A stretch of 64,000 bases of DNA from Candidatus Zhuqueibacterota bacterium. Its GTDB lineage: Bacteria; Zhuqueibacterota; Zhuqueibacteria; JANLFK01; Oleimicrobiaceae. The DNA lies in assembly GCA_024655945.1 (NCBI GenBank), contig JANLFK010000001.1, positions 588,116 to 652,115 on the forward strand, read 5' to 3'. A program made the position numbers and the translations under genes. Below are positions 5,062 to 35,471 of the stretch, piece after piece. Numbering within the stretch: position 1 is the first letter of the stretch; each line of letters opens with the position of its first letter. The notes beneath the pieces were generated by a model. It was given only the letters and a program-made list of their open reading frames with translations, was not told the origin of the DNA and searched no databases.

Positions 5062-5157
5062 GGGAATGGATGGGTCCCTGGTGGGCCCCGCGGGCTTCAA
5101 ACCCGTTGTTCCGTGCTGAACAGTGCGGAAGGTGGGTTCGATTCCCACACATTCCCG
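5062..5157 (+). tRNA. selC: tRNA-Sec (selenocysteine tRNA), anticodon UCA
   Basis: 96 nt; 8-bp acceptor stem GGGAATGG/ACATTCCC (one G-A mismatch), 6-bp D stem GGGTCC/GGGCCC, anticodon loop CTTCAAA with UCA at 5097-5099, long variable arm 5109-5130, T arm GTGGG-TTCGATT-CCCAC, discriminator G; directly downstream of selB. Confidence 0.8.
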
Positions 5158-5415: not shown

Positions 5416-8400
5416 ATGGACAGCGAGAGCACGTGGGATGGCACACGCGGACCTTGGCGGCGAAGGCCGAGGCTTGTGGTACCTCCCCTTCTGGGGCTTG
5501 TGCACTTTGCGGCGCCACTGCTGTTCTTCTTAGCGGCTCCCACCGTCTTATCAGCAGATGAACTGCAGCAGTACGGCGTAGGTCGCCGCGACACTACCTT
5601 TTACCGCGCCGGGCGCACACTGCACACCGCCGTTTACTACCCTGCCACCAGTTCCGGCAGCGGGGCCCCCCTGAACACCTCCGGAGCACCCTATCCCCTG
5701 CTGGTCTTCGCCATTGGCAAACGCATGCAGGTGGAACACTATCTGAGCTACTACGAACACCTGGCAGCCAGTGGCTATGTGGTGATGGCGCCTCAGTTTC
5801 CGGACGTGGACAGTCCCAGCGCCTACACCTGGAACGAGGACCTGCGCGATTGCATCACCCAGGCGCTGAATGCGCGCACCGTGCCAGGCTCCGTGTTCTA
5901 TCAGGCGATAGATCCCGGCAAGATAGGGCTCTTCGGCCACTCCTTCGGCGGCGGCACTGTGGTCGGCGTGGCCGCCGACGACGGCCGTGTGCGGGTGACC
6001 TGCGCCATCGCGCCCAATAACCCGGGCAACTACTCCTTCAACAAGATGCCCAATGTGCACACGCCCATTCACATACTCGGCGCCGAGCTGGACGCCATCA
6101 ACTCGGTGGAGGCCATCGGGCGCCCGCTCTACGAGCGAGGTAACCCCGACAAGGCCTTATTGGTGGTCAAGGGCGGCAACCACATGCAGTTTTCCGACTA
6201 TACCGGTTTTGACAGCGTGGATACACCCGCGACCATCACCCGCGCCCAGCAGCTGGCCATCACCAAGGAGCACCTGGTCAATCTCTTTGACGCTTACCTG
6301 AAGGGAAGAAGTAGCGCCCGGACACAGCTTTACGGCACCGCGACCCTCACCAAAGACAGCGTCTTTCTCTGGTTTGAAACGCAGGCAGCCAGCGCCTCTC
6401 GCCTGGTGTACGTTTCCGGAAACGGACAGAGCGCTCCCCCTGGACAGCTCACCCTCTTGCCGGTAGTGTTCAAGGTGGTGGATGCCCAAGGGAATGCGCT
6501 GCCCCGTCACACGGTGCACTTTCAAATCACGGCTGGCGGCGGCAGCCTGGCCGGACAGACCTGGCGGGACTTGGAGACCGACGCCGATGGTCTGGTAAGC
6601 ATCTATCCTCGTCTCGGACCCTCTGAAGGGGTGGCCAACAACCTCATCGCGGTGAGCGCGTACAAGGGCACGGCCCATCTCACCGACTCTCCCCAGACTG
6701 TGGCGCTCTCGGGCACGACGCAACCGCTGCGCCGCATTGTCGTGCACAGCGATCCTGCCACGCTCACATACCAAGTGGACAACGTCGCTTACTCCAGCCC
6801 ACAGACATTTCTCTGGCCGACGGGCAGCAGCCACACCGTTTCGGCACCCTCGCCGCAGGGTGAGGCGGCCGGCACGCGATTCGTCTTCTCCTCCTGGAGC
6901 GACGGCGGCGCCCTGTCCCACGCCTACACGGTGCCCGCGCGCGACGACACCCTTGTCGTCACCTTCCGGACCCAGTACCTGCTCACGTTGGCTTCTGCCT
7001 ACGGCGCGCCCACCGGTGGTGGATGGTACGATGCCGGCAGTGTGGCTTCCTTCCGCGTGGATCGTCATGTCCCGGCCGGCCAGGCTAGACGCATGAGCTT
7101 GAGCGGCTGGGTGGGCACTGGCTCCGGTTCCTACTCGGGCCCGGACTCCGCCGCCACCGTGACCATGCACGGGCCTGTCACCGAAACGGCTATCTGGCAC
7201 ACCGAATTTTTCCTCACCACTGCTCAGAACCCGCCTGCAGGGGGCACGGTTTCGCCGGCACCGCCTGGCGCCTGGTACGACAGCAGCGCCACGGTGACGC
7301 TGGTGGCCACGCCTGCTCCCGGCTACGCTTGGGGCAGCTGGTCCGGCACCATCAATAGCACCGTCAACCCTCTATCGTTTGTCATGACAGGGCCCACGGC
7401 AGCCACGGCGAATTTTGTTCGCCTCGCCCTGCTCACCTTTCGCACCGAACCACCTGGCCTGACCGTTGTGGTGGACACGGTCAGCTATGTCATACCGCGC
7501 ACTTTCTCGTGGCTCCCCGGCTCGGTGCACACTGTGTCTGCCACCTCGCCACAGGCAGGGGGCGCTGGGGTGCAATACCTCTTTGACTCGTGGAGCGACG
7601 GCAATCCACGCACGCACAACCTCGTCACACCGGCCCGGGACGACACGCTGGTGGCGCGTTTCCGCACGCAGTTTTTCCTTGCCGTGCAGTCGGCGCATGG
7701 CTCTCCGCGCGGTCAAGGGTGGTATGACAGCGGCGCGCAGGCAGCTTTCAGCGTCACCACCCCCGATTCACAGGCTGGCACGCGCCACCTGTTCCAGCAG
7801 TGGACAGGCGACTTCACGGGCACCTCTCCGTCTGGAACCGTGCTCATGGACCGGCCAAAAACCGTCACCGCCCTGTGGAAGACCCAACATTTGCTCACCG
7901 TGCTCAGTCCGTACTGCACGGCTTCCGGCGCCGGCTGGCACGACGAGGGTAGCCAGGCGCTCTTCCGCGTGCAGCCATGCGTCGTGTACGACAGCGCAGG
8001 CACCAGGCGGGTTTTTGCCGGATGGACCGGAACCGGGCCAGGTTCCTACACCGGCCCAGACAGCACAGGGACGATCGTGGTACAAGGTCCCGTCACCGAG
8101 GTGGCAAGCTGGCAGACTCAGTACCAGTTGACCGTCTCTTCCCCCTACGGCAGTCCTGTCGGCGCAGGTTGGTACCCGGCCGGTGCAACGGCCCATTTCG
8201 CCGTGACCTCGCCTGAAGTGGAAGGCCTGAGGCGCCACGTCTTCCGCCGCTGGAGCGGCCACTTTTCCGGCACTCAGCCGGCCGGGACACTGGTCATGCG
8301 CGGCCCGCGGACGGTCACCGCCGAGTGGGGCGACCAGTTCTACCTCGCCATCACCGCGGAGCCGCCCGAGGGCGGGACGGTGACTCCCCAACCTCCTGGC

Positions 8401-16797: not shown

Positions 16798-18749
16798 GTG
16801 CGAATTGAGAGTACGAGAAGCCCCCGACGTGCCAAACCTTCGGGCTTGGCCTGGGATGGAAGTTACTTGTGGTTGTGCGACATCAGCGAGAACACCGTGT
16901 GGAAGCTTAGCCGAACCGGCCAGGTGGCGGCCAGAATGTTTGTTCCCGGTACTTATCACACTGGTCTGGAATGGGACGGCCATTCTGCGTGGCTGGTGGA
17001 CGGCGAGGCTGAACTCATCTACGAACTGGACGGCTCTGGCAACACTCGGAACTTCTATCTGCCGCCGGGGACCTTTCCCAGGGATATTGCCTGGGACGGC
17101 AGTGATCTTTGGATTGCAGATGCTGACAACGACAGAATCTACAAGTTGAGAGGTCCCATCATGGGGCCTGAGCCGAGGGCTTCGTTCACGGTAACCCCAA
17201 CGTCCGGTTTCCTGGAGACCCTTTTCCTGGTTGACGCTTCCAGTTCACAAGACCAAGTTACTCCCCTCGCGGACCTCGAGGTTCGGTGGGATTGGGAAAA
17301 CGATGGGGCGTACGACACCGAATACTCCAAGGTCAAGACTGCAAACCATCAGTACGCCTCACCGGGAACCAAGACAATTAGGCTTGAGGTCAAGGATACG
17401 GACGGGTATACCGGCACGACAACAAGAAGCGTCTCAGTAAGCGCGAGGGCCCCTCAGGCTTTCAGCCTAGTTTCTCCGCGATCAGGTGATACCGTTAGAA
17501 CGTACCTGCCCTCATTCAAGTGGCGGACCGCGCGAGACGCTGACCCAGGAGATACGGTGCGCTATTTTGTTCAGTATTCGAAAAGCTCCTATTTCTCCAT
17601 CTTCGATACACTCGCAGCAGGCACCGACACCCCTGCTGCCGTACGTGATTCTTTGCAGCAATTACAGAGGTACTATTGGCGGGTGGAAGCGGTGGATCGC
17701 TGGGGAGCAAAGACCCTGAGCTCTCAAAGTTGGAATTTCCTGGTCGCAGACCTCACGCCCCCCTCTTTCACAATCGGTCTCCTGCAGAATCCCATAATCA
17801 CAGAGGATCTCGATCTGTACGCCATCCCCAACGAGACACTGGATCAGCGCGGGGTTCAGTGTACCGCCAACGGGATCCCTGTTCCTATGTCGGAGCTCGA
17901 CGCTGCGCGTCGAATCTATGTTGGTGATTACCAGCTCTCGGGGGAGCGGAAGACTGGTGGTCATCATGAGAGGCAAAGATGCGATATGGGGAAATGAAGG
18001 TGCCGACAGCCTGTCCATCTCGGTGCAGCTAGTCAAAACAGTACAGGGGGGGGACGATCGCTAGTCTCGATGGGGCCTTGCATGCACAGTTCCCCGCTGG
18101 TTGCCTTCCTTACGACGCTTACGTCTTGGTTCTACAAGCGAACCAGGAACCAGGACGGAGGGAAGGCCTCTGTAGAAGGACAATGGAAAGTGACACAGTC
18201 ATCGCCATTGGGACAAGCTACGGAATTGAGCCCGCAGGACTCCGGTTATCCGACTCTGTGCTGTTGGAGGCCAGTTACTCGGAGAGGGCCTTGGCAGACC
18301 TAGATGAGGAGAGACTAGAGCTTGCGATCAGAGAAAGTGACGGCTGGAGATCTCTCGGCGGTGTAGTGGACAAGAAGACTGACAGAGTGACCTTGCTGGT
18401 CGACCAGCTGGGAGAATACCGTCTGCAGTGGAATCAGAAACGTCGGACGTCAGGGAGTTTTCCTTCGCACTTGGTCCTTTTGCCAAACTACCCCAATCCG
18501 TTCAATCCGACCACTACCCTACATTATGGACTGCCTGAGCGATTTTCGGGCTGGGTGGAGCTGGGTATCTACGACGCCGCTGGGCGCGAAGTGTGTTGCC
18601 TGGTGGATGAGCCTCAGAACCCCGGGTATTATTCTGTCGTATGGGACGGGAGGGATAGCTCTGGTCGGCAGGTGCCAAGCGGAGTGTACTGTTGCCGTCT
18701 GCGGGCAAACAGGCTTTCCATTGCAAGAAAGATGATCTTCCTACGCTAA
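16798..18749 (+). pseudogene. T9SS-type surface protein (WDG beta-propeller blades + PKD domain + type-A C-terminal sorting domain), frame-disrupted and lacking an N-terminal signal
   Basis: Frame 1 16798-17997 (GLAWDGSYLWLCD, GLEWDGHSAWLVD, DIAWDGSDLWIAD; PKD-like WDWENDGAYD), switch to frame 2 near 17940-17960, then to frame 0 at the G8 run 18046-18053; frame 0 continues to the sorting domain LLPNYPNPFNPTTTLHY...GVYCCRL ending at 18749. Confidence 0.55.
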
Positions 18750-19843: not shown

Positions 19844-21383
19844 ATGAGAGAACCCAGTGGTCCATTCCGTCTTTTGATCATTTTGCTGGTATTTGTTGGC
19901 ATTGGCGCCCACGCCGGAGAAATCCGCCCCGTGAGCCCGGCCACCGTCCTGGGGCAGGTGGGGGTCGAGTTCGACGTGTATGTGCGTGTGGATCAGGTAA
20001 GCAATCTCTTCGGGGTCAGTTTCGTTTTGACCTTGGACAACGGCTATCTGGAGGCGATTTCCGAAAACCCCGAGTCCTTCATGGGCAGTGACGTGGTATT
20101 TTTGGGCCAGCACAATAATGCCGCCGGCACAGTGGCCATCGGGATTTCCCGCAAAGCTGGGCAGGGAGGCGTCAGCGGCACAGGCAATGTCGCACGGGTG
20201 CGAGAGTTGTGCAAGGGGCCACGCAGGACAGAGTCCTCCGGTTCGGGCTCGCCTCCGTGGAAGCCATCGACCCCTTGGGCGCGTCGATTGTGCTCGCTCC
20301 AGGTGAAGCCACGACTACGCTGTCCAGGTTGGTCACGGTGTGGCCGGGCGATGCTGATGATAACGGCACTGTGAACATCTTCGACATTAACCCGATCGTT
20401 GCCAATCACTGGGGCCGGACGGGGCCGCAGCGGCCCAATGCCTCTGTAAACTGGACGGGCCAGGTATGCCCACCATGGACACCGCCTGACGCAACCTACC
20501 CGACACTAACGGCGACGGCCTGGTGAGCATTTTCGACATTAATGCCGTACCGGTCAACTTCGGCAAGACTCACCCCGGAACCGCCGGGGCCCCACTCCCG
20601 ACACCGGTGGAACCCCAGGTCGTTGCGCTTGGCAAGGAAAGCGGGGTCACCTCACCGCCCATCGCGGCAAAGGGCCCGCAGCAGGTAGACAAGAACCAGG
20701 AATTCTGGGTAGACATCGAGGTTGGAGCCTTAGGCAATCCCGTCACCAACCTCAAGGTGGTCTCTTTCGAACTGACCTACACGAACACTGCCATAGTTGA
20801 CTACCTCAGTTACGAGGTGGGACCTTTCTTGACGGGCGCGATAGCAACCGTGATTCCGGATGACCCCAACGGGAAGGTAAGCGCGTCGGTCTATCGAACC
20901 ACTGGCAGCAACTCCGGCTACGGGGTAGTCTTGCGGCTGAAGTTTCGCACAAGCGCACAGGCCGCAGCGGGGCAGACGGTAAGCTTTGCCTTCGCCCAGG
21001 TGCTAGCCAACAGGGAGGACGGTAGCGTTCAGCCCTTGTCGCCCATTGGTCAGGTGGTCACCATTCAACCTGGCAGCGGCATACGCGCTGACGACTTCAC
21101 GCCCACAGAGTTCGAGCTGGTGCAGAACTACCCCAACCCCTTCAATCCTGGGACGGTCATAGAGTACCGTCTCCCGCAGGCCAGCAGGGTGACGCTGCAA
21201 GTGTACAACTTGGCTGGAGTAAAGGTGGCCTCGCTGCGGGACGGGATGGAGAGTGCGGGTCGTCATTCGGTGGTCTGGGATGGCCGCGACGAAATGGGCA
21301 GGCCTGTTGCAGCGGGGGTATACATGTGCAGGCTGGTGGCCGGAACCTACGACAAGACCATCAGAATGCTGCTGCTCAGGTAG
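19844..21383 (+). pseudogene. cohesin-like / dockerin-like / cohesin-like protein with T9SS type-A sorting domain, carrying two frame disruptions
   Basis: ATG at 19844 (AAAGAGG upstream), signal MREPSGPFRLLIILLVFVGIGAHA; cohesin-like VSFVLTLDNGYLEAI; dockerin repeats GDADDNGTVNIFDINPIV (frame 1) and DTNGDGLVSIFDINAVPV (frame 0); second cohesin-like VVSFELTYTNTAIVDYL; C-terminus LVQNYPNPFNPGTVIEY...GVYMCRL. Reading requires frame 2 -> 1 -> 0. Confidence 0.55.
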
Positions 21384-21682: not shown

Positions 21683-23850
21683 TCACCACCCCACCTCCGC
21701 CACCGCCCGCCAGTGCCGGCCGGGCATGGGGTAGCCGGCGGCCACCTGGTACTGCACGTCGAAGAGGTTGTCCATTCCTGCCCGGAGGTGCCAGGTCACG
21801 CCCCAGAAGGGCACGCGCACGCCCACATTGGCATCGGCCACCGTGTGCGCAGGAAGGCGCCGCGTGTTGGCTTCGTCCGTGTAGCGCGACCCCACATAGG
21901 AGGCAGTGACATGGCCGTAGAACGGGCGACCCTGAAAACCAGCCCGCAACGAGGCCATGTGTTCCGGCCGGTAGATGAGCCGCTTGCCCTGAAGACCAGG
22001 TATGCCACCAGTATCTACCGCCCGCAGATGGCTGTAGTTCGCCTCAAGGATGAGGCGCTGCGCAAACCCCTCCCACTTGAGCCGCAGCTCCTGCCCCGTA
22101 ATCTCCGCCCTGCTCACATTGGCAGGCGACCACTTGTAACTCAGCGGGTCCATCCCCCAGACGATGAGGTCGCGGGCCCAGCGTCGGTACAAGCTGAGCT
22201 CGCCGTGCACGCGTCCGGCAGCCGGCACCCTCACGCTCAGCCCACCATCAATTTCCGTGGTCCGTTCCGGCTTCAGGTTGGGATTGCCCACGGTAAAGGC
22301 GTCCTCCGGCCAGTAGAGGTCGTTGAATGTCGGTGCGCGGAAGGAGCCACCCACATTGCCGCGTATCGCTACGTGGCTGTGCCGCACCCTGCTCAAAATT
22401 ATCCCCACCTTCGGACTGGTGACGAAACCAACCCCCTCGTAGTGGTCGATGCGCGCCGTCGGCAGAAGGTTGGCCTGCCACTCGGGGCGACCGAGCAAGC
22501 CTTTCCAGGCGGCATCGGCCTGGGCAAAGGCGCCGAAAGACTCCCGCGCGTGGGTACCCAACGAGGTACCTCGCGAGCGCTCGTTCAGATAGCTGGCCCC
22601 CAGGGACAGCACCTTGTCCTGTGCCAAGGGCAGGTCACCCTGCAAAGAGGCACCGGCGCTGACGCCTTTGTTGTCGGCATTCGACGGCCAGAAGGGATTG
22701 GGGTCAACATAGCGGGTGGCGAGCTCGTGCCGGAACCCTGTCGCCTGTACGTGCACCTTGCCGCCGAGGCTCGTCTCCACACCCAGCTGCACGCGGCGGC
22801 TGTCGTCGGTCTGCTTTGCCTCGGGACTCGGAAAGGCCAAGGATCCAGGCGCACCCCGCTCGGCATGGGACCACTCGCCGGAAAGGGTGAGGCGTGTGAG
22901 TGGAGAAGACTGCCAGCTCACCTTGCCGAAGAGTTCATCCATGGCAAACGAATTGTTGATGCGCCTGCTCTCCCTTTCCCTGTCCGTGGCTGGGTCCTTG
23001 GTGCGGTAAATAAAGTCGCCGTCGCTGCGGGCGCGGCTTGCGGCCACCAGCAGGCCGACATCGCCCTGCTGGTGACTTGCGCCAAAGTGCGCCGAGCGGC
23101 TGCCCCAAGAGCCCATGCCCGTGGCAAGCGACAGCTGAGGCCTCACTCCTCCCCGCGGCGCGCGTGTGATGATGTTCACCACGCCGGCGGCGGCATCCGC
23201 CCCATAGAGCGAGGAGAGCCCGCTACGCACAAATTCAATGCGCTCCACCGCAGTGAGCGGCAGCAGGCCGAGATCGTACCCCCCGGCTAACGGCGAATTG
23301 AGGCGCGCGCCATCCCAGAGGATGAGCACCTGTTCCGCCGAGGAGCCGCGCACCGACAGCGACTTCATGGCCGCATCCGAGCCATAGCTTTTCACAAAGG
23401 CCCCGGCCACAGGCCGCAAGGCATCAGCCACGGTGCTGCCGTTGACCATCTCTATGTCCGCGGCGGAGACCACCTCCGCCGACACGGGCAACTCCCAGCT
23501 CAGCGATCTGCCACGCTTGCCGGTGACCATCACTTCCTCAAGTTCAATGATGGTCGGCACCAGGCGCACGGACACCTGTTGGGCGCCGCGATCCGCAACG
23601 CGGAGCGTGAGCAGCTGCGGCGCATAGCCCATGTAGGAAACGCGAAGCTGGTACGTTCCTGCCCGCAGCTTGGGAAGCACGAAACGGCCCATTTCGTCGG
23701 TGGCGGCGCCCTGCCCGCCTGGCATAACACTGACGTTGGCGCCGGCGAGCGGTTTGCCGGTGGTGTGGTCCACCACCAGGCCGGTCACTTGCGCAAGGGC
23801 ACTCGAACAAAGGACCGCCACACAGAGGAGCGTCAGGAAAAGCGTCTTTT
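21683..23850 (-). CDS. btuB: TonB-dependent receptor (CarboxypepD_reg-like + plug + beta-barrel), probably cobalamin receptor BtuB-like
   Basis: ATG at 23850 with GGGAGG upstream; signal MKTQKTLFLTLLCVAVLCSSALAQ; plug motifs, C-terminal aromatic AVAEVGW; lies downstream of a cobalamin riboswitch. The btuB assignment is by context. Confidence 0.8.
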
Positions 23851-24421
23851 GCGTCTTCATCTTCGCCTCCCGTGGAACCCGGTTCACTGCTGTCTCTCTC
23901 CTACCTAACACTCCGATGGCCGCCGGCACCAGCAGCGCAAAGATTGCGGTGTTGACGGCGGCGTGGGTCAGGTAGAACACCGCCCCATAGGCGTAGGCTC
24001 CGAGCAAAGCCGGGAGGGTGAGCCGGGTCATCACGAGAAAGCCCACCGTGGTGAGAAAGTCGAAGGTCACCGTGAGGATGAAGCCGCTGGCCGCTAAAAC
24101 CAGCACTTGTGGCCAGTGGATTTTGTGCCGCCGCGCCCTCCTGCCGATCAGCCCCCCCACAAACCCCGCCAGGCCCATCCCCAAGACCTGGCTGACCAGC
24201 AGAGTGACAGAGGAGATGCCGTAGGGGTTGATGGCCGCGTAGAGAAGCTCGCCGACCATGGCCGTGGCCAGTCCTCGCCCGGCACCAAGGAAGGCGCCGG
24301 CGACAAAGGCAGTGGCGGTCACCAGCTCCACGTTGGGCACGCTGCTGAGCAGGTAGCCCAAGGCGACCATCAACCCGGCGAACATGGCCATGCTGGCCAA
24401 AGAAACGGTGCCCGGTCTCAC
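23851..24421 (-). CDS. ECF-transporter S-component-like small membrane protein (possibly cobalamin-specific); 3' end undefined
   Basis: Hydrophobic multi-TM translation MAMFAGLMVALGYLL...LLVPAAIGVLGRR; GTG at 24421 with GAGGAGGAA upstream (alternative ATG 24391); no stop codon before the btuB start, same frame. Confidence 0.55.
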
Positions 24422-24478
24422 GACCTCATTCCTCCTCTGCCATGCGCGAGCACTCCACCACGCGGCGGGCGGCGCCAA

Positions 24479-24514
24479 CAAAAAAACCCTGGCCTCCTCA
24501 AACAGACCAGGGTT
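24479..24514 (-). terminator. intrinsic terminator / riboswitch expression-platform hairpin
   Basis: Minus strand AACCCTGG-14 nt loop-CCAGGGTT followed by TTTTTTT; sits between the riboswitch aptamer and the RBS. Confidence 0.5.
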
Positions 24515-24569
24515 CGCACGTCGCGCACGCTACGCACCGACACCTCACCCGCGGAGGCTCACACGGTGA

Positions 24570-24760
24570 TACCGACTCCGGCAGGTTTCCTGGCTCTCCC
24601 GACCCTGGTCGCCTTCCCATCCAAGCTGCGGACAGTGGCACCGTTGACCAGGGCACCGGCGCATCGACTCATGCGCCCGGGATCACAGTAGCGGGGCTGC
24701 GACGGACTTGCACCGTCTTCCCTTTTCCTCCCCGGCGGGGAGCACCGGAATCTACGCCCA
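24570..24760 (-). promoter_or_regulatory. cobalamin (AdoCbl) riboswitch
   Basis: Minus strand reads AAGGGAAGACGGTGCAAGTCCGTCGCAGCCCCGCTACTGTGA ... GCCACTG ... GGGAAGGC ... AGCCAGGAAACCTGCC, matching the conserved core and B12 box of the cobalamin riboswitch family. Confidence 0.8.
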
Positions 24761-24783
24761 TATCGCCAAAGAGCGACGGTGCA

Positions 24784-24812
24784 AATATAGCACAGCGCGA
24801 AGGCAATTGCAA
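24784..24812 (-). promoter_or_regulatory. sigma-70-like promoter for the riboswitch operon (TTGCAA-17-TATATT)
   Basis: Minus strand TTGCAA (plus 24807-24812), 17-nt spacer, TATATT (plus 24784-24789), about 25 nt upstream of the aptamer. Confidence 0.45.
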
Positions 24813-24936
24813 GGAAAAAATGCTCACGGGCAAGGTTTCCGCGGAAAATTTGTAGCGGCCCGCCAGTTGGAACTTTTCCCTCTCTGAGGAAGTCTGACCA
24901 GCGTCAACGCGTTCGCACAAGTCTGAGGAGGTGGAC

Positions 24937-26460: not shown

Positions 26461-27536
26461 TCAGGGATGCTGCGCTAAGAACTCGGTCACTGCCGTGGCA
26501 AACTCATCTGGCGCATCGGCAAAGAGAAAGTGGCCGGCCTGCGGCATGGTGCGCGGCTCCGCATGAGGGAGCAGTTGCGCGTACGTGGCGGTGGCCGCCT
26601 CCGGCTAAATGTCCATCCCTCCGTGGAGAATGAGCGCCGGTGCGGTGACCCGCTGCAAAGCCGCGCGGTAGTCGTGCTTCTTGCCCATGCTGAGATACTT
26701 CGCCTGCACCATCCAACCGCCGTTGCCGTGGAAGCGAAGCGTGCTGGGCACCGGCATGCCCTTCGCCTTTGCGGCAGCAAGGTAGAACCTGGTGAAACGG
26801 GAGTTCAGGCCGATCATCTCCCCCTCACTGCGCGAGAAGAGGTGCTTGAAATCGAGATACTCCTTGAGGAAAGTAGCATAGTCGCTCTTCAGCTCTGCTG
26901 GCAGGAGCGCGCCCACCTCGTCCAGGAGGTTGCCCTCGCCGGGAAACACGAGGAGCTGCGCCGGTGCAATCAACACCAGGGCACGCACATGTTCGGGAAA
27001 CTCCGCCGCGTACAGGGTGGCGAGAAAGGCGCCGATGGAGTGTCCGACCAGGATCAACCTATCCACGCCCAGGATGCGACGGATGCGTTCGACGTCAGCC
27101 ACCTGCGCACCTATGCCGAGGGCCCTATCGAGGTTGAGCATGTTGCGATAGAGGCTCTTGTCGGATAGCCGATCCACTGGCCGCGTTGAGTTGCCGCAGC
27201 CGCGCTGGTGGTAATAGATAACGCGATACTGCGCCGCCAGCTGATGCAGACCAGGTGGTGGGGGAGGTAGGGATAGCCAGGGCCACCGTGCAACACCAGA
27301 ACCTGCGAGCCAGACCCTTCTTCGAAGAAGAAGAGCTTCACATTCGGCTCAACCAGCCAGAGGTTTGCGCCTGCCGTTTGCGGCGGCGGAGCCAGTGGCG
27401 CCCGCAGGTTCTTTGCCTGCCGCACCATTCCTGGTCGGTACAAAGGCTTTCCGGCGGAAACGACAAAGAGCACCCCAGCAACCACCACTACCACAAGCAC
27501 CCCCGCCAGCAGCACCAGCATTACTCTCTTGGCCAC
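26461..27536 (-). pseudogene. membrane-anchored alpha/beta hydrolase (proline iminopeptidase-like) with one frameshift and one in-frame TAG
   Basis: N-terminal part VLVLHGGPG (track ORF 27111..27536); body LAAQYRVIYYHQRGCGNS...LVGHSIGAFLA...ILHGGMDI in another frame (switch at a C5 run near 27260-27264); TAG at 26607..26605; conserved C-terminus PEAATATYAQLLPHAEPRTMPQAGHFLFADAPDEFATAVTEFLAQHP continues in frame to TGA at 26461. Confidence 0.6.
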
Positions 27537-27548
27537 GGTTTCTCCTCC

Positions 27549-29384
27549 TCAATCCACAAAGCTCCAGTTGACGCCCCAGGCAAAAAAGCGCGTGGGCATG
27601 GGATATCCCCAGGTGGTCTGGTACGCGCGCCCAAGAAGGTTTTCCATCCTCACCCAGATGACGGCGTTGTGCATGATCCGCGCCCTGGCTTCGGCGCCAG
27701 GGACGGCCACTGGTGGCAGCCTGTGCTCGCTCTCCGCGTCCCACCGCTGGCCAAGGAGCTGGCAGAAGAGTTGCGCGGTGACCTCGAGGTCGGAGTTGAA
27801 CAGGGAAAGGCCGTAACCTGCGGCCAGCCAGCCGTGCCAACTCGGCAGTTGCGGTAGGCGTTCGTCGCCAAGCACGGGGGACTGCGCCACGACCCAGCAG
27901 CGCAGGAAGGAACGCTTGACCGGCTCCCCGAAGAGGCTCGCCATCACTCCGGCCGACCGATGCCTTCCGGCCGCTTGCGTGAACAAGAGCGAGTCCCCTG
28001 AGGCTCCAAAACGCGCGTCTATCTCCCGTGCGCCGTGCCGCACAAAGCCGCCGACGTAGAACGCCGCGTGAGGGCCCTGGGACGACATGCCTGCCACCAC
28101 TCTGTGCACAGCCCACGGGCGAAGGCCCTGAGTGCCCCACACGCGCTGCCGGCCGTATCGCTCGGCAAAGCTGGGAAAAAAGACCTCGCGGCTGCCGTGC
28201 ACCTCCACCCAGGAATTTGTGCTCAGGCGCCGGACAACCTGGAGGGACGGGGCAAGAAAGAAGCGCGTATCCTGGCGCGCCATACCATCGCAAAGGAGCT
28301 GGAGGTGCCAGGACTTGCCAGGTTCGCTGCGCAAGCCGCACCGCAGGCTCCCCTCCACGTCCGTGTGGCCGGCCATAACCTCACTCTCCACCTGGGCATA
28401 GCGCACAAAGGCGCCCACGAGGCCGGCAGCCTTCTGCCCGCCCACGCTCGCCGATGACGCTAAGGTGAGGACATGGCTTTCTTCCTGCCAGCGCAGCCGC
28501 AATGGGTAGTCGTGAAACTCGCGCCGCAGGTCTGTGTGCACGATGCTTGCCGCGACGTCAACAGGGCGCCCAAGGGTGCCCCGCAGCGTGAGCGCGTGGT
28601 CTATCCTGCGATCTTTGCGCACCGGGTGGACCGCCATGCGCAGGGCGAGTTGGCGTTGGTCCGGCGTTTCCTCTGTCTGCGACTTTGTGAGGAGGGCCAC
28701 ATAGTTTGCCGAGCAGTTGTCCGCCAGTGCCGCGCTTGCGGTTGCCCTGATCCTTTGTGCATCATACTCCTGCCGCAGGGCAAAGCCCTCGAAGCCAGAG
28801 AGCAGGGCACCCGCCAACACGTCGGCCTTGGGGCTCACCTTCATGCCAAGGGCGACGTCCACGGCGTGTACGCCCCAGTCGCCGTTCTCATAGCCGACAT
28901 GGGAAAGTGGCCGCTGCCCGGTGTGACGGCGCGCTGTGCAGGAAAGCGTCCCCCCTGCCAGACCACGGGGCGTTCCCCACCCGGCAGCCGTGGCCTCGAG
29001 GCGGATCGCCGACAGCCAGTAGGTGGGAAGCATGTGCACATCAGCCGTGCCGGAGATGGGGTCGCGGAGGTCTAATCCGTCCACGAAGAGACCGGTCTCC
29101 CGCGGCGTACTCCCCAGCGCGGAAAAGGTCAGCCACTGGCCGGGTGCCCCTCTGTCGTGGAGAAAGATGAAAGGCAGCTCGGTCAGGACCTGTGCAGGCC
29201 TGGGGCGCAAGAGCGCCACCCCCTCGAGCGAGAGCGGCTGCCGCATCGGCAGGCTGTCCTGGGAAGCCACGGTCCCGGCCGCCCCACCCTGGGCTCCAGA
29301 ATCGGCAGACCACCCCAGCACCAGCAGTGTCACCAGAGCCCACAACGGCACGGTCCACATGGGCATTTGGACGCGGCTCATCAT
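27549..29384 (-). CDS. TonB-dependent receptor-like outer-membrane protein (plug + barrel)
   Basis: ATG at 29384 with AAGGGGAG upstream; signal MMSRVQMPMWTVPLWALVTLLVLGWSADSGAQ; plug-like GLFVDGLDLRDPISGTADVHMLP; C-terminus FAWGVNWSFVD. Confidence 0.65.
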   Translation of the reverse strand: MMSRVQMPMWTVPLWALVTLLVLGWSADSGAQGGAAGTVASQDSLPMRQPLSLEGVALLRPRPAQVLTELPFIFLHDRGAPGQWLTFSALGSTPRETGLFVDGLDLRDPISGTADVHMLPTYWLSAIRLEATAAGWGTPRGLAGGTLSCTARRHTGQRPLSHVGYENGDWGVHAVDVALGMKVSPKADVLAGALLSGFEGFALRQEYDAQRIRATASAALADNCSANYVALLTKSQTEETPDQRQLALRMAVHPVRKDRRIDHALTLRGTLGRPVDVAASIVHTDLRREFHDYPLRLRWQEESHVLTLASSASVGGQKAAGLVGAFVRYAQVESEVMAGHTDVEGSLRCGLRSEPGKSWHLQLLCDGMARQDTRFFLAPSLQVVRRLSTNSWVEVHGSREVFFPSFAERYGRQRVWGTQGLRPWAVHRVVAGMSSQGPHAAFYVGGFVRHGAREIDARFGASGDSLLFTQAAGRHRSAGVMASLFGEPVKRSFLRCWVVAQSPVLGDERLPQLPSWHGWLAAGYGLSLFNSDLEVTAQLFCQLLGQRWDAESEHRLPPVAVPGAEARARIMHNAVIWVRMENLLGRAYQTTWGYPMPTRFFAWGVNWSFVD

Positions 29385-30430
29385 GCGCGCTCCCCTTTTG
29401 GCGAAGTGGCAAGCTGCCCGCATGCCGCTTGGATGTCGTCCCCCTTGCTACAGCGCACGATGACCGGCGCCTTCAAGGGTGCTAGCCCCTGCCGAAATGC
29501 CTCAATGCGCGCGGCGGTCGGCCGGCGGAAGAGCTCATCGGTGGGATTGTAGGGGATGAGGTTCACCTTGCAGGGCACCTGCTTCAGCAAGTCGCGCAGA
29601 CGCTTAGCGTCCTCGGCCGAGTCGTTTACCCCTGCCAAGAGCACGTACTCGAAGGTCGGTCTGCGACCTGAGCGGCGGTGGTAGAAAATCACCGCGTTGA
29701 GGAGCTCCTGCAGCGGATAGCGCTCTGCCACCGGCATGAGCGCCCGGCGTTGTTCGTCAGTGGTGGCATTGAGGGAAATCGCCAGCTTGAAGCGGTGCCC
29801 CTCTTCGGCCAGCCTCATGATCCCGGGCACCCAGCCAGCGGTGGAAATGACGATGCGCCGATGGCCGATGGCTATGCCGCGCTCATGGCGCACAAGCTCG
29901 CAGGCAGCAATCACCTTATCATAGTTGAGCAGCGGCTCGCCCATGCCCATGAGCACCAGGTTGCTCACCTCCTCCCCGACCTCGCGCTCGACGAGCAGCA
30001 CCTGGTCAACAATCTCCCCTGCCGACAGGTTGCGACGGAAACCCAGGCGTCCGGTGGCGCAGAAACGGCACCCTAAGGCGCAACCGACCTGCGTGGAAAC
30101 ACAGAGGGTGTGGCGCCCTGCCTCGCGAATGTACACGCTTTCGATGCGCTCGCCATCGCCGAGCTCGAACAAGAACTTGCGCGTGCCTCCGTCCCGTGAG
30201 GATACCACCGCCACAATCTTCAGGAGGCCAATCTCGGCAACTTCGGCCAGGCGCAGCCGCAAAGGCTTAGAGATGTCGGTCATTTCGGCAAAGTCGCGCG
30301 CTCGCTTGTTGTAGAGCCAAGCGAACAGCTGCCGCCCGCGGAAAGGCTTCTCGCCTATGCTGGAGGCAAACTGCTCCAGCTCCTCCATGCTCATGCCGAC
30401 AAGTTGTCTCTTGCCTGGCTCAGTCTCCAT
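29381..30430 (-). CDS. rlmN: 23S rRNA (adenine2503-C2)-methyltransferase RlmN (radical SAM)
   Basis: CX3CX2C radical-SAM motif GCALGCRFCATG, LVLMGMGEPLLNYD, 349 aa; 4-bp overlap with the downstream gene. Confidence 0.9.
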   Translation of the reverse strand: METEPGKRQLVGMSMEELEQFASSIGEKPFRGRQLFAWLYNKRARDFAEMTDISKPLRLRLAEVAEIGLLKIVAVVSSRDGGTRKFLFELGDGERIESVYIREAGRHTLCVSTQVGCALGCRFCATGRLGFRRNLSAGEIVDQVLLVEREVGEEVSNLVLMGMGEPLLNYDKVIAACELVRHERGIAIGHRRIVISTAGWVPGIMRLAEEGHRFKLAISLNATTDEQRRALMPVAERYPLQELLNAVIFYHRRSGRRPTFEYVLLAGVNDSAEDAKRLRDLLKQVPCKVNLIPYNPTDELFRRPTAARIEAFRQGLAPLKAPVIVRCSKGDDIQAACGQLATSPKGERA

Positions 30431-30534: not shown

Positions 30535-30569
30535 AAACGAGCCCTATGACGACATGCGAAGGAGAACCT

Positions 30570-31574
30570 ATGGCCCTTGCGCAACCCCAAAAAGGCGACT
30601 TGGAGATTGTCGAGCAGCTTAAGGAAGCGCACGACCGCATTACTAGAGAAATTGGCAAGGTCATTGTCGGTCAGCGGCAGGTCATCGACGAGCTGCTGAT
30701 TTCGTTGCTGTCGCGCGGGCACTGCCTGCTCATCGGCGTGCCCGGCTTAGCCAAGACGCTGCTCATCAGCACGCTGGCGCGGGTGCTGAACCTGTCCTTT
30801 TCGCGTATCCAGTTCACCCCGGACCTGATGCCCTCCGACATCACCGGCACCGAAGTTATTGAGGAGGACGTGAGCACGGGGCGGAAGACCTTCAAGTTCG
30901 TGCGCGGACCGGTATTTGCCAACATCGTGCTGGCCGACGAGGTGAACCGGACGCCGCCCAAGACGCAGGCGGCCCTGCTGCAAGCCATGCAGGAGCACGA
31001 GGTCTCGGTGGCCGGGCAAACCTACAAGCTCGATGAACCCTTCTTCGTGCTTGCCACCCAGAACCCCATCGAGCAAGAGGGTACCTATCCGCTGCCGGAG
31101 GCGCAGCTTGACCGGTTTATGTTCAGCCTGTGGGTCGACTATCCCGCCGCCGAGGAGGAGGAGCAGATTGTACGTTCCACCACCAGTGCCTACGCCGCGC
31201 AACTGCACAAGGTTCTGGAGGCGCAGGAAATTGTTGCCCTGCAGGACCTGGTGCGGCGCGTGCCGGTGGCCGATGCGGTGATTCACTATGCAGTCGAGCT
31301 GGTGCGCAAGACTCGCCCCAACCACGACGGCGCGCCGCAGTTTATTCGCGACTGGATTAGCTGGGGAGCGGGACCGCGCGCCTCCCAATACCTCATCCTC
31401 GGCGCCAAGACGCGCGCCATCCTGGACGGTCGGCCTACCCCGGACATTGCCGACGTGCGGGCGGTGACCCTGCCCGTGCTCCGCCATCGCCTGGTGACCA
31501 ATTTCAACGCCGAGGCCGATGGCGTAGGCACCGAGGAGATTATCCGCCGCCTTCTGGACACCACCGGAGCATGA
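30570..31574 (+). CDS. MoxR-family AAA+ ATPase
   Basis: Walker A GVPGLAKT, Walker B ADEVNR, sensor VLATQNP; ATG at 30570 with AAGGAG six nt upstream. Confidence 0.9.
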
Positions 31575-32488
31575 CCACGATGCCGCGCGCGGCGCAAGAC
31601 TACCGCCGATTCCTGCAGCCAGAAGTGGTGTCTAAGCTGGCGTCGATGGACCTGCGCGCCCGCCTTGTGGTGGAAGGCTTTATCGCCGGCCTGCACCGCA
31701 GCCCGTACCACGGCTTCAGCGTAGAGTTCGCCGAGTACCGCCAGTACATGCCCGGCGACGAGGTCAAGCACATCGACTGGAAGGTCTACGGCCGCACCGA
31801 CCGCTTCTACGTCAAGGAATTCGAGGAAGAGACTAACCTCAAGTGCTATCTGCTCCTGGACGCCTCTGGCTCCATGGGCTATGCCTCCGGGCCGCTCACC
31901 AAGCTGCAATACGCCAGCTACTTAGCAGCCGCCCTCACCTACCTGATGCTCCAGCAACGGGACGCTGTCGGGCTGGTGACTTTTGACCAGAAGATTCGCA
32001 CCTTTGTGCCGCCGCGCTCGGTGTCCAGCTACCTGCACGTGATTCTACGCCAGTTGGACCGGATGCGCAGCCGCAGCAGAACCAACGTGGCCGCCACACT
32101 CCATGAGTTGGCCGAGAGGATCAAGCGCCGCGGCCTCATCATCCTCTTCTCTGACCTATTCGACGAGCCCAGCGAAGTGCTGGCTGGCCTGCAGCACTTT
32201 CGCCACCGCAAACACGAGGTCATCGTCTTTCACATTCTCGACCCGCTGGAACGCACGTTTAGCTTCCGGCAGGACGGCCTTTTCAAAGACCTCGAGACGG
32301 ACGAGACCATCAGCACCCAGCCGTGGCACATCCGCGGGGAGTATCGGGCGCTGGTGGAGCAGTTCCTCGACACCTACCGCCGCGGCTGCCGCCAGCATCG
32401 CATCGACTATGTGCTGATGGACACGGCCGCCTCGTACGACCGCGCCCTCTTGCAGTACTTGCTGAAACGACAGCGCGTGGGCGGCTGA
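31571..32488 (+). CDS. DUF58 domain protein (MoxR partner, vWA-like)
   Basis: Start overlaps the MoxR stop (ATGA); motifs [25 protein letters not shown]. Confidence 0.85.
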
Positions 32489-32534
32489 TAGAAAACCGCA
32501 CGGCCGGGACAGTCTGCAACCGCTGGTGAAACCC

Positions 32535-35471
32535 ATGAGCAGCAAGACCGTGGACGACATCCTCAATGCATTGAATGCCGAACAACGCGAAGCGGTGACC
32601 TTCGGCGAGGGACCCCTGATGGTGGTGGCCGGTGCAGGCACTGGCAAGACGCGCGTCATCACGCATCGCATTGCCTACCTGATCGCCACCAAGCAGGCCC
32701 GTCCGGAGGAGATCTTGGCGCTCACCTTCACCGACAAGGCCGCCGCGGAGATGGAAGAGCGCGTGGACGTGCTGGTGCCCTATGGCTTTGCCAATGTGTG
32801 GATCAGCACCTTCCACTCCTTCGGCGACCACCTGCTGCGCCAATACGCCTTTGAGTTGGGTCTACCTCCCGACTTTCAAGTCCTTGCCGAAGCAGAGCAG
32901 AACATCTTCTTCTGCCAGCACCTTTTCGCCTATCCGCTGGATTTCTACCGGCCGCTGGGCAACCCGACCCGTTTCCTCTCCGCGCTCCTCTCGCTGTTCA
33001 GCCGAGCAAAGGACGAAGACGTCAGCCCTGAAGAGTATCTGGCCTACGCCGAACGGCTGCAGAGCGAGGCTGCGGCCCATCCAGAGGACGGCGAGCTTCA
33101 GGAGGAGGCGGCGCGGCAGATGGAGCTGGCGCGCACCTATGCCTGTCATCAGCGCCTGTTGGCCGAAAATGGCAAAATCGACTTTGGCGACCAGGTGAGC
33201 CTCGCCCTCAAACTGCTGCGCGAGCGTCCTGCCGTGCTACGAGAATTACGGCAGCGCTACCGGTACATCCTGGTGGATGAGTTTCAGGACACCAACTATG
33301 CGCAGTTTGTGCTCCTGCAACTTCTGGCCGGGTCGCACGGCAACATCACCGTGGTGGCCGACGATGACCAGTCCATCTACAAGTTCCGGGGTGCGGCAAT
33401 CAGCAACGTCATCAATTTCTTGCGCACCTACCCCGACGCCCGCCTGGTGGTGCTGAGGGAGAACTATCGCTCCACCCAGCAGATTCTGGATGCGGCCTAT
33501 CGCCTCATCAGCCACAACAACCCCGAGCGCCTGGAGGTGCAGCGCGGCATCAGCAAGCAGCTGCGGGCGCAGCGCGCCGGCGGGCCTGCAGTCATGCACC
33601 GCCATTTCGACAGCCTCTCCACTGAAGCAGACGCGGTGGCGAGCATCATCGAGCAGAAGATGCAGGCAGGTGGTTACTGCTATCGCGACTTTGCCATTCT
33701 CGTGCGCGCCAACAACCACGCCGATCCCTTCCTGCGCTCGCTGAACATGAAGGGCATCCCATACCAGTTCAGCGGTAGCCGTGGGCTCTACAGCCGCGAA
33801 GAGGTGCGCCTGCTGACCCACTTCTTGCGCACCCTGAGCAATCCCGACGATGTGGTGAGCCTTTTCCACTTAGCGCAATCTGAGGTGTACCAGTTCCCGC
33901 CTGTGGAGTTGGCGCGCTGCAACAGCTATGCTCATGCCAGGAACCTGTCGCTCTTCCAGGTCTTTGAGAGCCTGCCACGGCTCGCCGACCTGGTCGTCTC
34001 TCCGGAGGCGCAGGCCACCGCCGCCAAGATTGTGGAGAACACGCACAAATTCTTGGAATTTGCTCGCACGAATAACGCCGGCGTGGTGCTGTACCGATTT
34101 CTGACCGACAGCGGTCTGTTGAAACGGCTGACCAGCGCGCAGACCGTGGACGCAGAGGTGCAGCTTCTCAACATCGCGCGCTTTTTCGAGATTGTGCGCA
34201 GCTTCTGCGCCATGGCCACCGAGGACCGCGTCCAGGAGTTCGTCACGCACTTGGACGCCCTCATCGAGGCGGGCGACGACCCGCCCACCGCGCAGGCCGA
34301 CACCGACTTGGACGCCGTGAACGTGCTCACAGTGCACAAGGCCAAGGGGTTGGAGTTCCGCGCCGTGTTTCTGGTGGGACTGGTGCAGGACCATTTCCCG
34401 ACGCGCGCCAGGTCGGAGGCCCTCGCCTTGCCCAAGGAGTTGATCAAAGACATTGTGCCGGAAGGGGACGTGCACTTGCAGGAGGAGCGCCGCCTCTTCT
34501 TCGTCGGCATGACGCGCGCCAAGGAAGAGCTCTACCTCACCAGCGCACGCGACTATGGCGGCAAGCGCCCGCGCAAAATCAGCCAGTTCGTGCTGGAGGC
34601 CTTGGACACCGTGCGCGCCGACGACAGCTACGAGCGCCCATCTCCCATAGAGGTGATCCAGCGCCACGCACCAGCAGCGCAGACCACTCCCGACTTGGCC
34701 GCGCCCATCCCCGAGGACCAGCTCCTCACCATAAGCCATAGGCAGATTGACGACTACATTACCTGCCCGCTCAAGTACAAGTACATCCACGTGCTGCGCG
34801 TGCCTCTGTTGCCGCACCACACCATCGTCTACGGGCAAGCCATTCACAAGGCCATCGAGCAGTACCATCGGCGCAAGGTGGCCGGCCAGCCGGTGACCCT
34901 GCAAGACCTGCACGAGGCGTTTCGCAGCGCCTGGAGTAGCCAGGGGTTCTTGTCGCGAGAGCACGAGGAGCAACGGTTCGCCGCCGGCCTCAAGGCCCTA
35001 GAGCTCTTCTTCCACCAGGAGGAGGAAAACGGTTGCACGCCGGCCCTGGTGGAACAGGAGTTCAGCTTCATCCTGGACAACGACCGGGTAACGGGCCGCT
35101 GGGACCGAGTGGACGTTCGCGATGGGGCCGTGTACATCGTCGACTTCAAGTCGTCGGCAGTGCAGGACCAGGACAAGGCCAACGAAGAGGCAAGAAAGAG
35201 CCTGCAGCTGGGGATCTACGCCTTGGGCTATCGCGAAGTGAACGCCCGCACTCCAGATTTCATCGAGCACCGCTACGTGGAGAGCGGGATCACCGGGCGA
35301 GCTGCCGTGACCGACAAGTTGCTGGCCAAGGCCACCGAGAAGATTAAGATTGCAGCCCGCGGCATTCGGCAGCGGCACTACACCGCCCAGCCGGACGAGT
35401 ACACCTGCCCCTACTGCGCCTACAGCCAGATCTGTCCGGCCACGTCGAGCAGTTACCTCATCACCGAGTGA
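32535..35471 (+). CDS. UvrD/PcrA-family SF1 helicase fused to C-terminal Cas4/RecB-like PD-(D/E)xK nuclease with a Cys cluster
   Basis: Walker A AGAGTGKT, helicase motifs LTFT, VDEFQDT, YRST; C-terminal ITCPLKYKY ... YIVDFKSS ... CPYCAYSQICP (four Cys, Fe-S-type). Confidence 0.85.
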   Translation: MSSKTVDDILNALNAEQREAVTFGEGPLMVVAGAGTGKTRVITHRIAYLIATKQARPEEILALTFTDKAAAEMEERVDVLVPYGFANVWISTFHSFGDHLLRQYAFELGLPPDFQVLAEAEQNIFFCQHLFAYPLDFYRPLGNPTRFLSALLSLFSRAKDEDVSPEEYLAYAERLQSEAAAHPEDGELQEEAARQMELARTYACHQRLLAENGKIDFGDQVSLALKLLRERPAVLRELRQRYRYILVDEFQDTNYAQFVLLQLLAGSHGNITVVADDDQSIYKFRGAAISNVINFLRTYPDARLVVLRENYRSTQQILDAAYRLISHNNPERLEVQRGISKQLRAQRAGGPAVMHRHFDSLSTEADAVASIIEQKMQAGGYCYRDFAILVRANNHADPFLRSLNMKGIPYQFSGSRGLYSREEVRLLTHFLRTLSNPDDVVSLFHLAQSEVYQFPPVELARCNSYAHARNLSLFQVFESLPRLADLVVSPEAQATAAKIVENTHKFLEFARTNNAGVVLYRFLTDSGLLKRLTSAQTVDAEVQLLNIARFFEIVRSFCAMATEDRVQEFVTHLDALIEAGDDPPTAQADTDLDAVNVLTVHKAKGLEFRAVFLVGLVQDHFPTRARSEALALPKELIKDIVPEGDVHLQEERRLFFVGMTRAKEELYLTSARDYGGKRPRKISQFVLEALDTVRADDSYERPSPIEVIQRHAPAAQTTPDLAAPIPEDQLLTISHRQIDDYITCPLKYKYIHVLRVPLLPHHTIVYGQAIHKAIEQYHRRKVAGQPVTLQDLHEAFRSAWSSQGFLSREHEEQRFAAGLKALELFFHQEEENGCTPALVEQEFSFILDNDRVTGRWDRVDVRDGAVYIVDFKSSAVQDQDKANEEARKSLQLGIYALGYREVNARTPDFIEHRYVESGITGRAAVTDKLLAKATEKIKIAARGIRQRHYTAQPDEYTCPYCAYSQICPATSSSYLITE

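Follow-up and report, generated by a model that had tools for sequence, protein, structure and literature searches.

What does the cobalamin riboswitch control in the 64,000-nucleotide stretch of contig JANLFK010000001.1 from a Candidatus Zhuqueibacterota bacterium (the whole stretch is called the window here)? A preliminary description of this DNA had recognised a complete cobalamin riboswitch leader (promoter, aptamer and terminator) on the minus strand, and had taken two genes behind it, an energy-coupling factor (ECF) S-component-like gene and a BtuB-like receptor gene, for a vitamin B12 uptake operon. The leader is borne out by the analysis presented here and a role of both parts in B12 uptake remains plausible, but the two-gene operon had to be given up, because both parts belong to one 912-codon open reading frame (ORF) with no stop codon between them, a fusion that is kept in relatives. 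We consider it likely that a transcriptional B12 OFF switch governs a fused precursor which, after predicted cleavage, would provide both steps of B12 uptake from a single gene. The fusion architecture is real, recurrent and poorly annotated. The riboswitch securely marks the downstream gene as B12-regulated, and the value of the locus lies in that regulated gene, whose leader is made up of the following elements.

24784..24812, minus strand: sigma-70-like promoter, -35 TTGCAA (24812..24807), 17-nt spacer, extended -10 TGnTATATT

24563..24764, minus strand: cobalamin riboswitch aptamer, long form with P6 extension, by RF00174 score, motifs and conservation

24602..24654, minus strand: aptamer helix, seg1 GCCCUGGUC (24654..24646) paired with seg2 GACCAGGGU (24610..24602)

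24535..24568, minus strand: P13-like hairpin, CACCG...CGGUG, inner stem GCCUC/GAGGU, loop CGCGGGU

24480..24515, minus strand: intrinsic terminator, 5' arm GAACCCUGGUCU, 3' arm AGGCCAGGGUUU, U7

24431..24437, minus strand: Shine-Dalgarno (SD) sequence GAGGAGG, 9 nt 5' of the GTG start

Scanning the window against Rfam 15 with cmscan, a check proposed in the preliminary description, returned a significant match to RF00174 (cobalamin) at 24764..24563 on the minus strand, with a score of 99.2 bits (E 1.4e-23) against a gathering score of 31.5 bits. The match is not truncated, spans model positions 1-189 of 189 and is the sole riboswitch found in the 64 kb. The B12 box AGCCAGGAAACCTGCC (as RNA AGCCAGGAAACCUGCC) lies at 24595..24580 on the minus strand, accompanied by the further core motifs GCCACUG and GGGAAGGC and by an L5 loop, CCCGC at 24695..24691, that is close to the UCCCG consensus; reading the sequence from 24300 to 24950 recovered on the minus strand all motifs that had been quoted. 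The promoter given earlier as TTGCAA-17-TATATT was likewise found at 24812..24784, with its -10 hexamer TATATT (24789..24784) preceded by TG. It was the only sigma-70-like site in a consensus scan of the 2 kb from 23500 to 25500, against 0.2 expected from shuffles, and places the predicted transcription start near 24777. When the leaders of five lineages (the window and four others) were aligned, both promoter hexamers, the aptamer, the hairpin directly behind P1, both arms of the terminator and the start codon GTG (24421, invariant in the other four) were near-invariant, as against a synonymous divergence (pS) of 0.49-0.62 in the coding sequence of the same five lineages. Going by its parts, the window leader would act as an ordinary transcriptional OFF switch; as a cobalamin riboswitch it adds another well-conserved case to a class already studied in depth.

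The coding region that it precedes is arranged as follows; a vertical cleavage mark is written here as a slash.

21683..24421, minus strand: single fused ORF of 912 codons, from GTG at 24421 to the stop at 21685..21683

23906..24421, minus strand: CbrT-like ECF S-component domain, residues 1-172, six transmembrane helices, with VPNVELVTAT, by profile and fold

23861..23905, minus strand: in-frame 15-codon basic linker GRRETAVNRVPREAK, no stop, of constant length and variable sequence in five lineages

23792..23860, minus strand: internal signal peptide MKTQKTLFLTLLCVAVLCSSALA, residues 188-210, predicted signal peptidase I site ALA/Q211

21686..23791, minus strand: BtuB-like TonB-dependent receptor, with CarbopepD_reg (212-299), Plug (310-414) and beta-barrel (503-886)

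In the ORF list of the window one minus-strand frame (21683..24481) covers both parts. Pfam places along the 912-residue protein, in this order, ECF_trnsprt at 8-166, CarbopepD_reg (E 1.9e-19), Plug (1.7e-20) and the TonB barrel (3.4e-39), the last three at the positions listed above; the combination of Plug (PF07715, 74 bits) and 22-strand barrel (PF00593, 136 bits) identifies the second part as a TonB-dependent receptor. No stop codon interrupts the junction sequence ...GVLGRRETAVNRVPREAK-MKTQKTLFLTLLCVAVLCSSALAQ.... An identical protein is present in three assemblies, two at NCBI (MCR4437900.1 and MDH7559089.1, one of them labelled candidate division KSB1) and one at the Joint Genome Institute (JGI), where it appears as a 902-residue start variant on a 632-kb contig and is annotated as 'outer membrane cobalamin receptor'. 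Searching with the whole protein gave five more full-length fused homologues (67-86% identity, 902-924 aa), one of which (P0017) came out identical in assemblies of three separate read sets.

The reading frame is kept across the junction in the five lineages. More than half of the synonymous sites differ among the five lineages, and the S-domain is under purifying selection, with a ratio of nonsynonymous to synonymous divergence (pN/pS) of about 0.28. The linker is more relaxed (pN/pS 0.4-0.7 for seven of the eight pairs compared, 1.13 for the remaining one), yet no indel was found in it across the fused homologues of the window clade. In almost all lineages, stops in the other frames are found 0-8 codons from the junction.

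The fusion also extends well beyond this clade. An exhaustive profile search of 1.84 billion representatives (50% identity clusters) returned 1140 members of the S-component family (E<=1e-3), 491 of which reach E<=1e-10. Fused proteins with the S-domain first (766-933 aa) account for 22 of the best 150 family representatives, and Plug and/or barrel were confirmed by Pfam in most of the fused representatives tested. Nearly all of these carry a net-basic linker, then a hydrophobic segment (mean hydropathy 2.0-3.5 over a 12-residue window) and a small-residue motif. Outside the window's own clade, 14 of the 20 scored fused proteins have no Met in the junction region scanned, whose limits were set two residues ahead of the linker and two residues inside the hydrophobic core. 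A cluster of 40 members, drawn from many KSB1 metagenome-assembled genomes (MAGs) and annotated as 'hypothetical protein' or 'ECF transporter S component', is fused in every member bar those marked partial; another fused protein comes from Candidatus Eisenbacteria. Scanning a genome collection with the family profile yielded 51 loci from KSB1, Marinimicrobia, Calditrichaeota, Latescibacteria, WOR-3 and unclassified MAGs, four of them with long fused ORFs, among which two further junction types without an obvious separate start codon occur. The ten relatives of the S-domain retrieved by word index are all stand-alone proteins of 165-211 aa, and in the loci of stand-alone relatives a divergent receptor-like gene (~600 aa) directly follows the S-like gene. 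In the databases the fused proteins are labelled 'TonB-dependent receptor', 'ECF transporter S component' or 'hypothetical protein', labels that make the combined architecture currently invisible to users.

How would such a protein reach two membranes? We propose that the message encodes one 912-residue precursor whose N-terminal S-component would cross the inner membrane with six helices, keep both ends in the cytoplasm and continue into the basic cytoplasmic linker. The internal signal peptide would insert as a seventh helix and export the rest of the chain, and signal peptidase I would cut after ALA210, so that the S-component would stay in the inner membrane while the cleaved receptor, predicted to start with QVTGLVVDHTTGK, would be released for outer-membrane insertion. 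Both membrane steps of B12 uptake would then be served, at a fixed ratio, by one gene under B12 repression, and a conserved internal SD sequence and ATG (23860) would probably allow extra receptor to be made alone. The segment behind the linker has the pattern of such a polyprotein: a basic n-region, a hydrophobic h-region (mean hydropathy of the signal peptide 3.0) and an AxA c-region, placed behind a C-in membrane domain. S-components are known to be N-in, C-in. The RRARRHK loop and the basic C-terminal tail (GRRE...K) of the window domain fit this orientation, so the signal peptide would insert N-in, C-out; going by the structure model and this positive-inside pattern, the ALA/Q site would lie at the periplasmic face.

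An uncleaved signal-like helix would instead leave the inner-membrane S-component covalently tethered to the outer-membrane barrel, as a trans-envelope conduit for B12. In three fused relatives (P0067, P0166 and P0036) the hydrophobic segment is directly followed by 80-100 residues with a high content of Pro, Ala, Thr, Ser and Asp, enough to cross a periplasm in the manner of the TonB linker, and in the window protein a folded CarbopepD_reg domain lies between the helix and the plug. We nevertheless think a tether unlikely. The window clade has a canonical, conserved AxA/Q motif whose c-region varies as ALA, AFA, ARA, AQA and ADA, and it lies just where the nearest stand-alone receptor homologues, P0019 and P0020, which begin at this signal peptide, have one of their own. 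Signal peptidase I acts on AxA-type sites irrespective of the sequence upstream. A further point against a tether is that the beta-barrel assembly machinery (BAM) is not known to assemble any barrel that remains anchored in the inner membrane.

The same junction offers a possible second start. The ATG at 23860 is preceded within the linker by an internal SD sequence, GGGAGG at 23871..23866, that ends 5 nt before it; a GGAGG 7-8 nt before the ATG is shared by the five lineages and persists where an Arg codon has changed to Gln, and the signal peptide starts with Met in six of six proteins of the window clade. Read-through in this clade might accordingly be a tolerated by-product, the receptor coming from the internal start and the S-domain simply having no stop. 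This we judge improbable: ribosomes that initiate at the GTG must translate into the receptor, so the fused precursor arises anyway, other clades keep the fusion without an internal start, and the length of the linker has stayed constant over a large divergence.

The precursor model assigns the membrane domain to the S-components. Run against the PDB, the family profile had a single significant match, 6fnp chain A (E 9e-7), over its full length (positions 4-173); a single-sequence phmmer search of the PDB with the S-domain gave no match. The entry 6FNP is ECF-CbrT, the vitamin B12 transporter of Lactobacillus delbrueckii, of which CbrT is the cobalamin-specific S-component (PMC5997447). From its length and its 'membrane protein' label in that entry, chain A would be CbrT. 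An AlphaFold2 model of the S-domain has six helices (predicted local distance difference test, pLDDT, 89.4; predicted template-modelling score, pTM, 0.85), and the top 20 Foldseek matches to it are all S-components (probability 0.82-1.00, query-normalised TM-score 0.43-0.65), the best being PanT at the top, FolT, ThiT, BioY and RibU. In an alignment of 11 S-domain sequences the motif [VI]PNVELVTAT is invariant, and no cysteine is conserved throughout. Membership in the BtuM family was rejected, as the family profile did not match 6FFV in the PDB at E<=10 and a conserved cysteine of the BtuM type is missing from the alignment. No EcfT, EcfA or EcfA' genes were seen in the locus neighbourhoods examined.

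The genomic context points to the substrate. RF00174 lies directly upstream of the S-like gene in 24 related loci, including the fused loci L009, L010 and L023, and the presence of the riboswitch upstream of about half of the related loci ties the S-component family to B12. In the eight related loci scanned first (L001-L008), neither threshold gave a riboswitch, which had suggested a family unrelated to B12, a view overturned by the wider genome scan. Locus L023, from a Zodletone MAG, has a second RF00174 aptamer (6350..6539, 89 bits) directly after the fused gene, which indicates two B12-controlled units in tandem. On these grounds cobalamin would be the substrate. The S-component may work without an ECF module.

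A different cargo for the S-like domain, either a precursor such as cobinamide or an unrelated vitamin, is in our view quite unlikely. Roughly half of the family loci have no riboswitch in Rfam scans, the top Foldseek match is PanT, and the BtuM-type cysteine is not conserved. In L001 (1250..2635) only 10 nt separate panB (ketopantoate hydroxymethyltransferase) from the start of the S-like gene, a gap too short for a riboswitch; B12 specificity need not extend to every family member. Against another substrate stand the profile match, in which CbrT was the only solved structure found by sequence, the 24 loci with RF00174 immediately upstream and the nearest family of the fused partner, TonB-B12.

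We turn to how the leader would act on this gene. The hairpin and U7 attenuator reported before the ribosome-binding site were recovered as a 12-pair hairpin (24515..24484; 6 G-C pairs, -20.1 kcal/mol) with a U7 run at 24486..24480, although the spacing of about 58 nt claimed for it does not hold: the U-run ends 42 nt 5' of GAGGAGG (24437..24431). The terminator is kept in the five lineages, where an A-to-G change in the 3' arm still pairs as G-U. It contains GGAGGCC (24497..24491), of which the GGA lies in the loop yet is invariant, while other loop positions vary. The P13-like hairpin (-13.6 kcal/mol) is the same at 34 of 34 nucleotides in the five lineages, bar a one-base insertion in L061. 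Its loop sequence GCGGG (24552..24548) is complementary to the CCCGC of L5, a candidate kissing loop with five possible G-C pairs and a duplex energy of -10.7 kcal/mol; both loop sequences are invariant in the five leaders, so no covariation is possible.

These elements suggest the following course of events. Transcription would start near 24777. With a corrinoid bound, the aptamer would fold, L5 would kiss the loop of the near-invariant P13 hairpin, and the 12-bp hairpin with its U7 run would end transcription near 24480. Without ligand, an alternative pairing would hold one arm of the terminator and RNA polymerase would read on. Two candidates for this ON-state pairing were found. In the first (candidate A), seg2 GACCAGGGU is perfectly complementary to the terminator 5' arm (seg3, 24513..24505); the helices seg1:seg2 (-18.6 kcal/mol), seg2:seg3 (-19.2 kcal/mol) and seg3:seg4 (the terminator, -20.2 kcal/mol) are near-isoenergetic and mutually exclusive. 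In the second, the P13 5' strand GAGCCUCC (24560..24553) would pair with GGAGGCC (-16.5 kcal/mol). A metE-style antiterminator, formed by the 3' side of P13 and the terminator 5' arm, reached only -8 kcal/mol and was not taken as a main candidate. The ligand response, and the use of either pairing, are predicted from the arrangement of the leader.

The relatives show the same protein family behind two riboswitch designs. All eight loci with a long aptamer (188-248 nt) have a hairpin and U-run 48-80 nt after it; loci with a short aptamer (119-146 nt) mostly have no terminator and the gene follows closely. About 15 loci among L031-L058 (e.g. L046, 3776..3910) carry such a short RF00174 aptamer before the S-like gene and have no U-run terminator. 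The short-aptamer loci are probably translational switches of the class without a P6 extension, and the comparison suggests transcriptional control in the long-aptamer loci and translational control in the short-aptamer loci. Their existence, together with the complementarity of CCUCC in the P13 5' strand to the GGAGG of the true SD sequence, raises the idea that the window riboswitch, too, acts mainly on translation, or at both levels, and not by transcription termination. We regard this as decidedly improbable for a leader with a strong hairpin and U7 run 42 nt 5' of the SD sequence, a terminator kept in the five lineages as in the eight long-aptamer relatives, and an SD sequence that itself differs between lineages, the relatives keeping only an SD-like GGAG.

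The weakest alternative, that two genes were joined by a sequencing or assembly error or by a strain-specific loss of a stop, could appeal to the nearby out-of-frame stops, which would let a single-base error create or destroy the fusion, and to the roughly 85% of the top 150 family members that are separate genes, often 0-3 nt apart or overlapping, but it is effectively refuted by the identical protein in three assemblies and the identical P0017 from three read sets, by a frame kept in five lineages at pS ~0.6 with an indel-free linker, by the 22 fused representative clusters and the 40-member KSB1 cluster, and by junctions in other clades that have no separate start codon.

Several points weigh against the reading that we prefer, a B12-repressed gene for a cleaved, two-part precursor. 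Equilibrium folds of minimum free energy (MFE) always contain the terminator, so the ON state rests on kinetic arguments; the whole-leader MFE z-score of -1.6 is uninformative on the ON state because the terminator is always present. The two antiterminator candidates are inseparable by covariation because the five leaders are too conserved. The membrane domain is ECF-S-like, as first described, by fold and profile evidence, but in isolation it falls just under the Pfam threshold (29.0 against the PF12822 gathering cut-off of 30.7 bits), which several of its relatives pass. 'BtuB-like' stands for the receptor part as a nearest-family label and makes no claim of membership: the best NCBIfam model, TIGR01779 (TonB-B12), scores 193.2 bits, far below its equivalog cut-off of 599.7, and NF007926 (the BtuB equivalog) 129.6 against 836 bits. 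With the remaining half or so of the family loci free of riboswitches, a B12 substrate is not secured for every family member. The polyprotein with an internal signal peptide cut by signal peptidase is predicted from sequence, and the conserved internal SD sequence and ATG mean that the receptor could come mostly from independent initiation, with read-through less important.

That many uncultured diderms of KSB1, Eisenbacteria and related candidate phyla make the inner- and outer-membrane parts of B12 uptake as one polypeptide, whether processed or tethered, has in our estimation a little better than an even chance of being true; transport across two membranes would then be built and coupled in a way not described before, with the implication that a CbrT-like S-component functions on its own, independently of an ECF module. 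A processed precursor would make the system a bacterial polyprotein with products in two different membranes, and a natural experiment on the stoichiometric coupling of uptake steps and on the export of an outer-membrane protein from an internal signal peptide. By 'guilt by fusion', the S-component family, with more than 1,000 clusters at 50% identity, would work with TonB-dependent receptors in diderms, which is relevant to the passage of B12 through the inner membrane in the many bacteria without BtuCDF.

Elsewhere in the window, a 624-aa ORF on the minus strand (27549..29423) has no Pfam match. Its orthologue in the loci of stand-alone relatives (26% identity, E 9e-33) is the divergent TonB-receptor-like gene located directly behind the S-like gene, and this orthology ruled out that the relatives' neighbouring receptor is the counterpart of the fused BtuB-like part. 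The ORF stands alone 3 kb upstream of the fusion, overlaps a RlmN-like radical SAM gene (29381..30430) and has no riboswitch, which suggests that an ancestral pair of S-gene and receptor was broken up and the S-domain re-partnered. Between them, an alpha/beta-hydrolase gene (26605..27536, minus strand) seems split into the overlapping ORFs 26605..27177 and 27111..27536; the relative L063 has a single gene of 353 aa, and a frameshift, a pseudogene or a local assembly error is likely here. A selenocysteine tRNA on the plus strand (5062..5156; RF01852, 75.2 bits) indicates that the organism uses selenoproteins. Two plus-strand proteins (18078..18749 and 20523..21383) have FlgD_ig or NYPNPFNP-type C-terminal domains, typical of type IX secretion cargo, which fits an organism of the Fibrobacteres-Chlorobi-Bacteroidetes (FCB) group or KSB1. 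The plus-strand genes at 30546..35471, a MoxR-type AAA ATPase and DUF58/VWA pair followed by a 981-aa UvrD/PD-(D/E)XK (AddA-like) helicase-nuclease, are ordinary housekeeping context.

Compared with known riboswitches, the leader is close to the metE switch of P. megaterium, in which mutational dissection showed that an L5-L13 kissing loop stabilises P13 so that the terminator can form (PMC10327014). Both have the RF00174 core, the B12 box, the L5 loop, a P13 loop complementing L5 and a downstream terminator, but the antiterminator of the window leader was not found by simple analogy, two other pairings being stronger. The E. coli btuB riboswitch also controls a B12 receptor, but at the translational level. 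Such differences are not unusual for the class.

On the protein side, the window domain shares with CbrT the [VI]PNV motif after helix 1 and the link to B12, and CbrT is the only solved structure that its profile matched; the similarity is distant, however, and CbrT works with an EcfAA'T module in a monoderm. BtuM, a solitary S-component-like B12 transporter co-localised with btuB in Proteobacteria (PMC6072759), is the nearest functional analogue, a small inner-membrane protein of the ECF-S fold coupled genetically to an outer-membrane B12 receptor in a diderm. There the partners are neighbouring genes; here, in KSB1 and FCB-group candidate phyla, they form one ORF. The receptor part has the order of CarbopepD_reg, Plug and barrel found in the SusC/RagA-like receptors of the FCB group, with a partial match to TIGR04056, but differs from them in that its best family is TonB-B12 and a whole membrane protein precedes it in frame.

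The fusion of S-component and receptor is conserved and apparently undescribed: we found no description of it in full-text literature searches, whose coverage is incomplete and whose silence is absence of evidence only, and no protein that unites a transporter subunit of the inner membrane with a TonB-dependent receptor of the outer membrane is known to us from earlier work. The closest mechanistic precedent that we know is FbcH of Bradyrhizobium japonicum, a cytochrome b-c1 polyprotein cleaved at an internal signal peptide, which likewise joins a polytopic inner-membrane protein, an internal signal peptide and an exported partner in one ORF. The two products of FbcH are subunits of one inner-membrane complex, whereas the exported part of the protein described here would travel on to the outer membrane.

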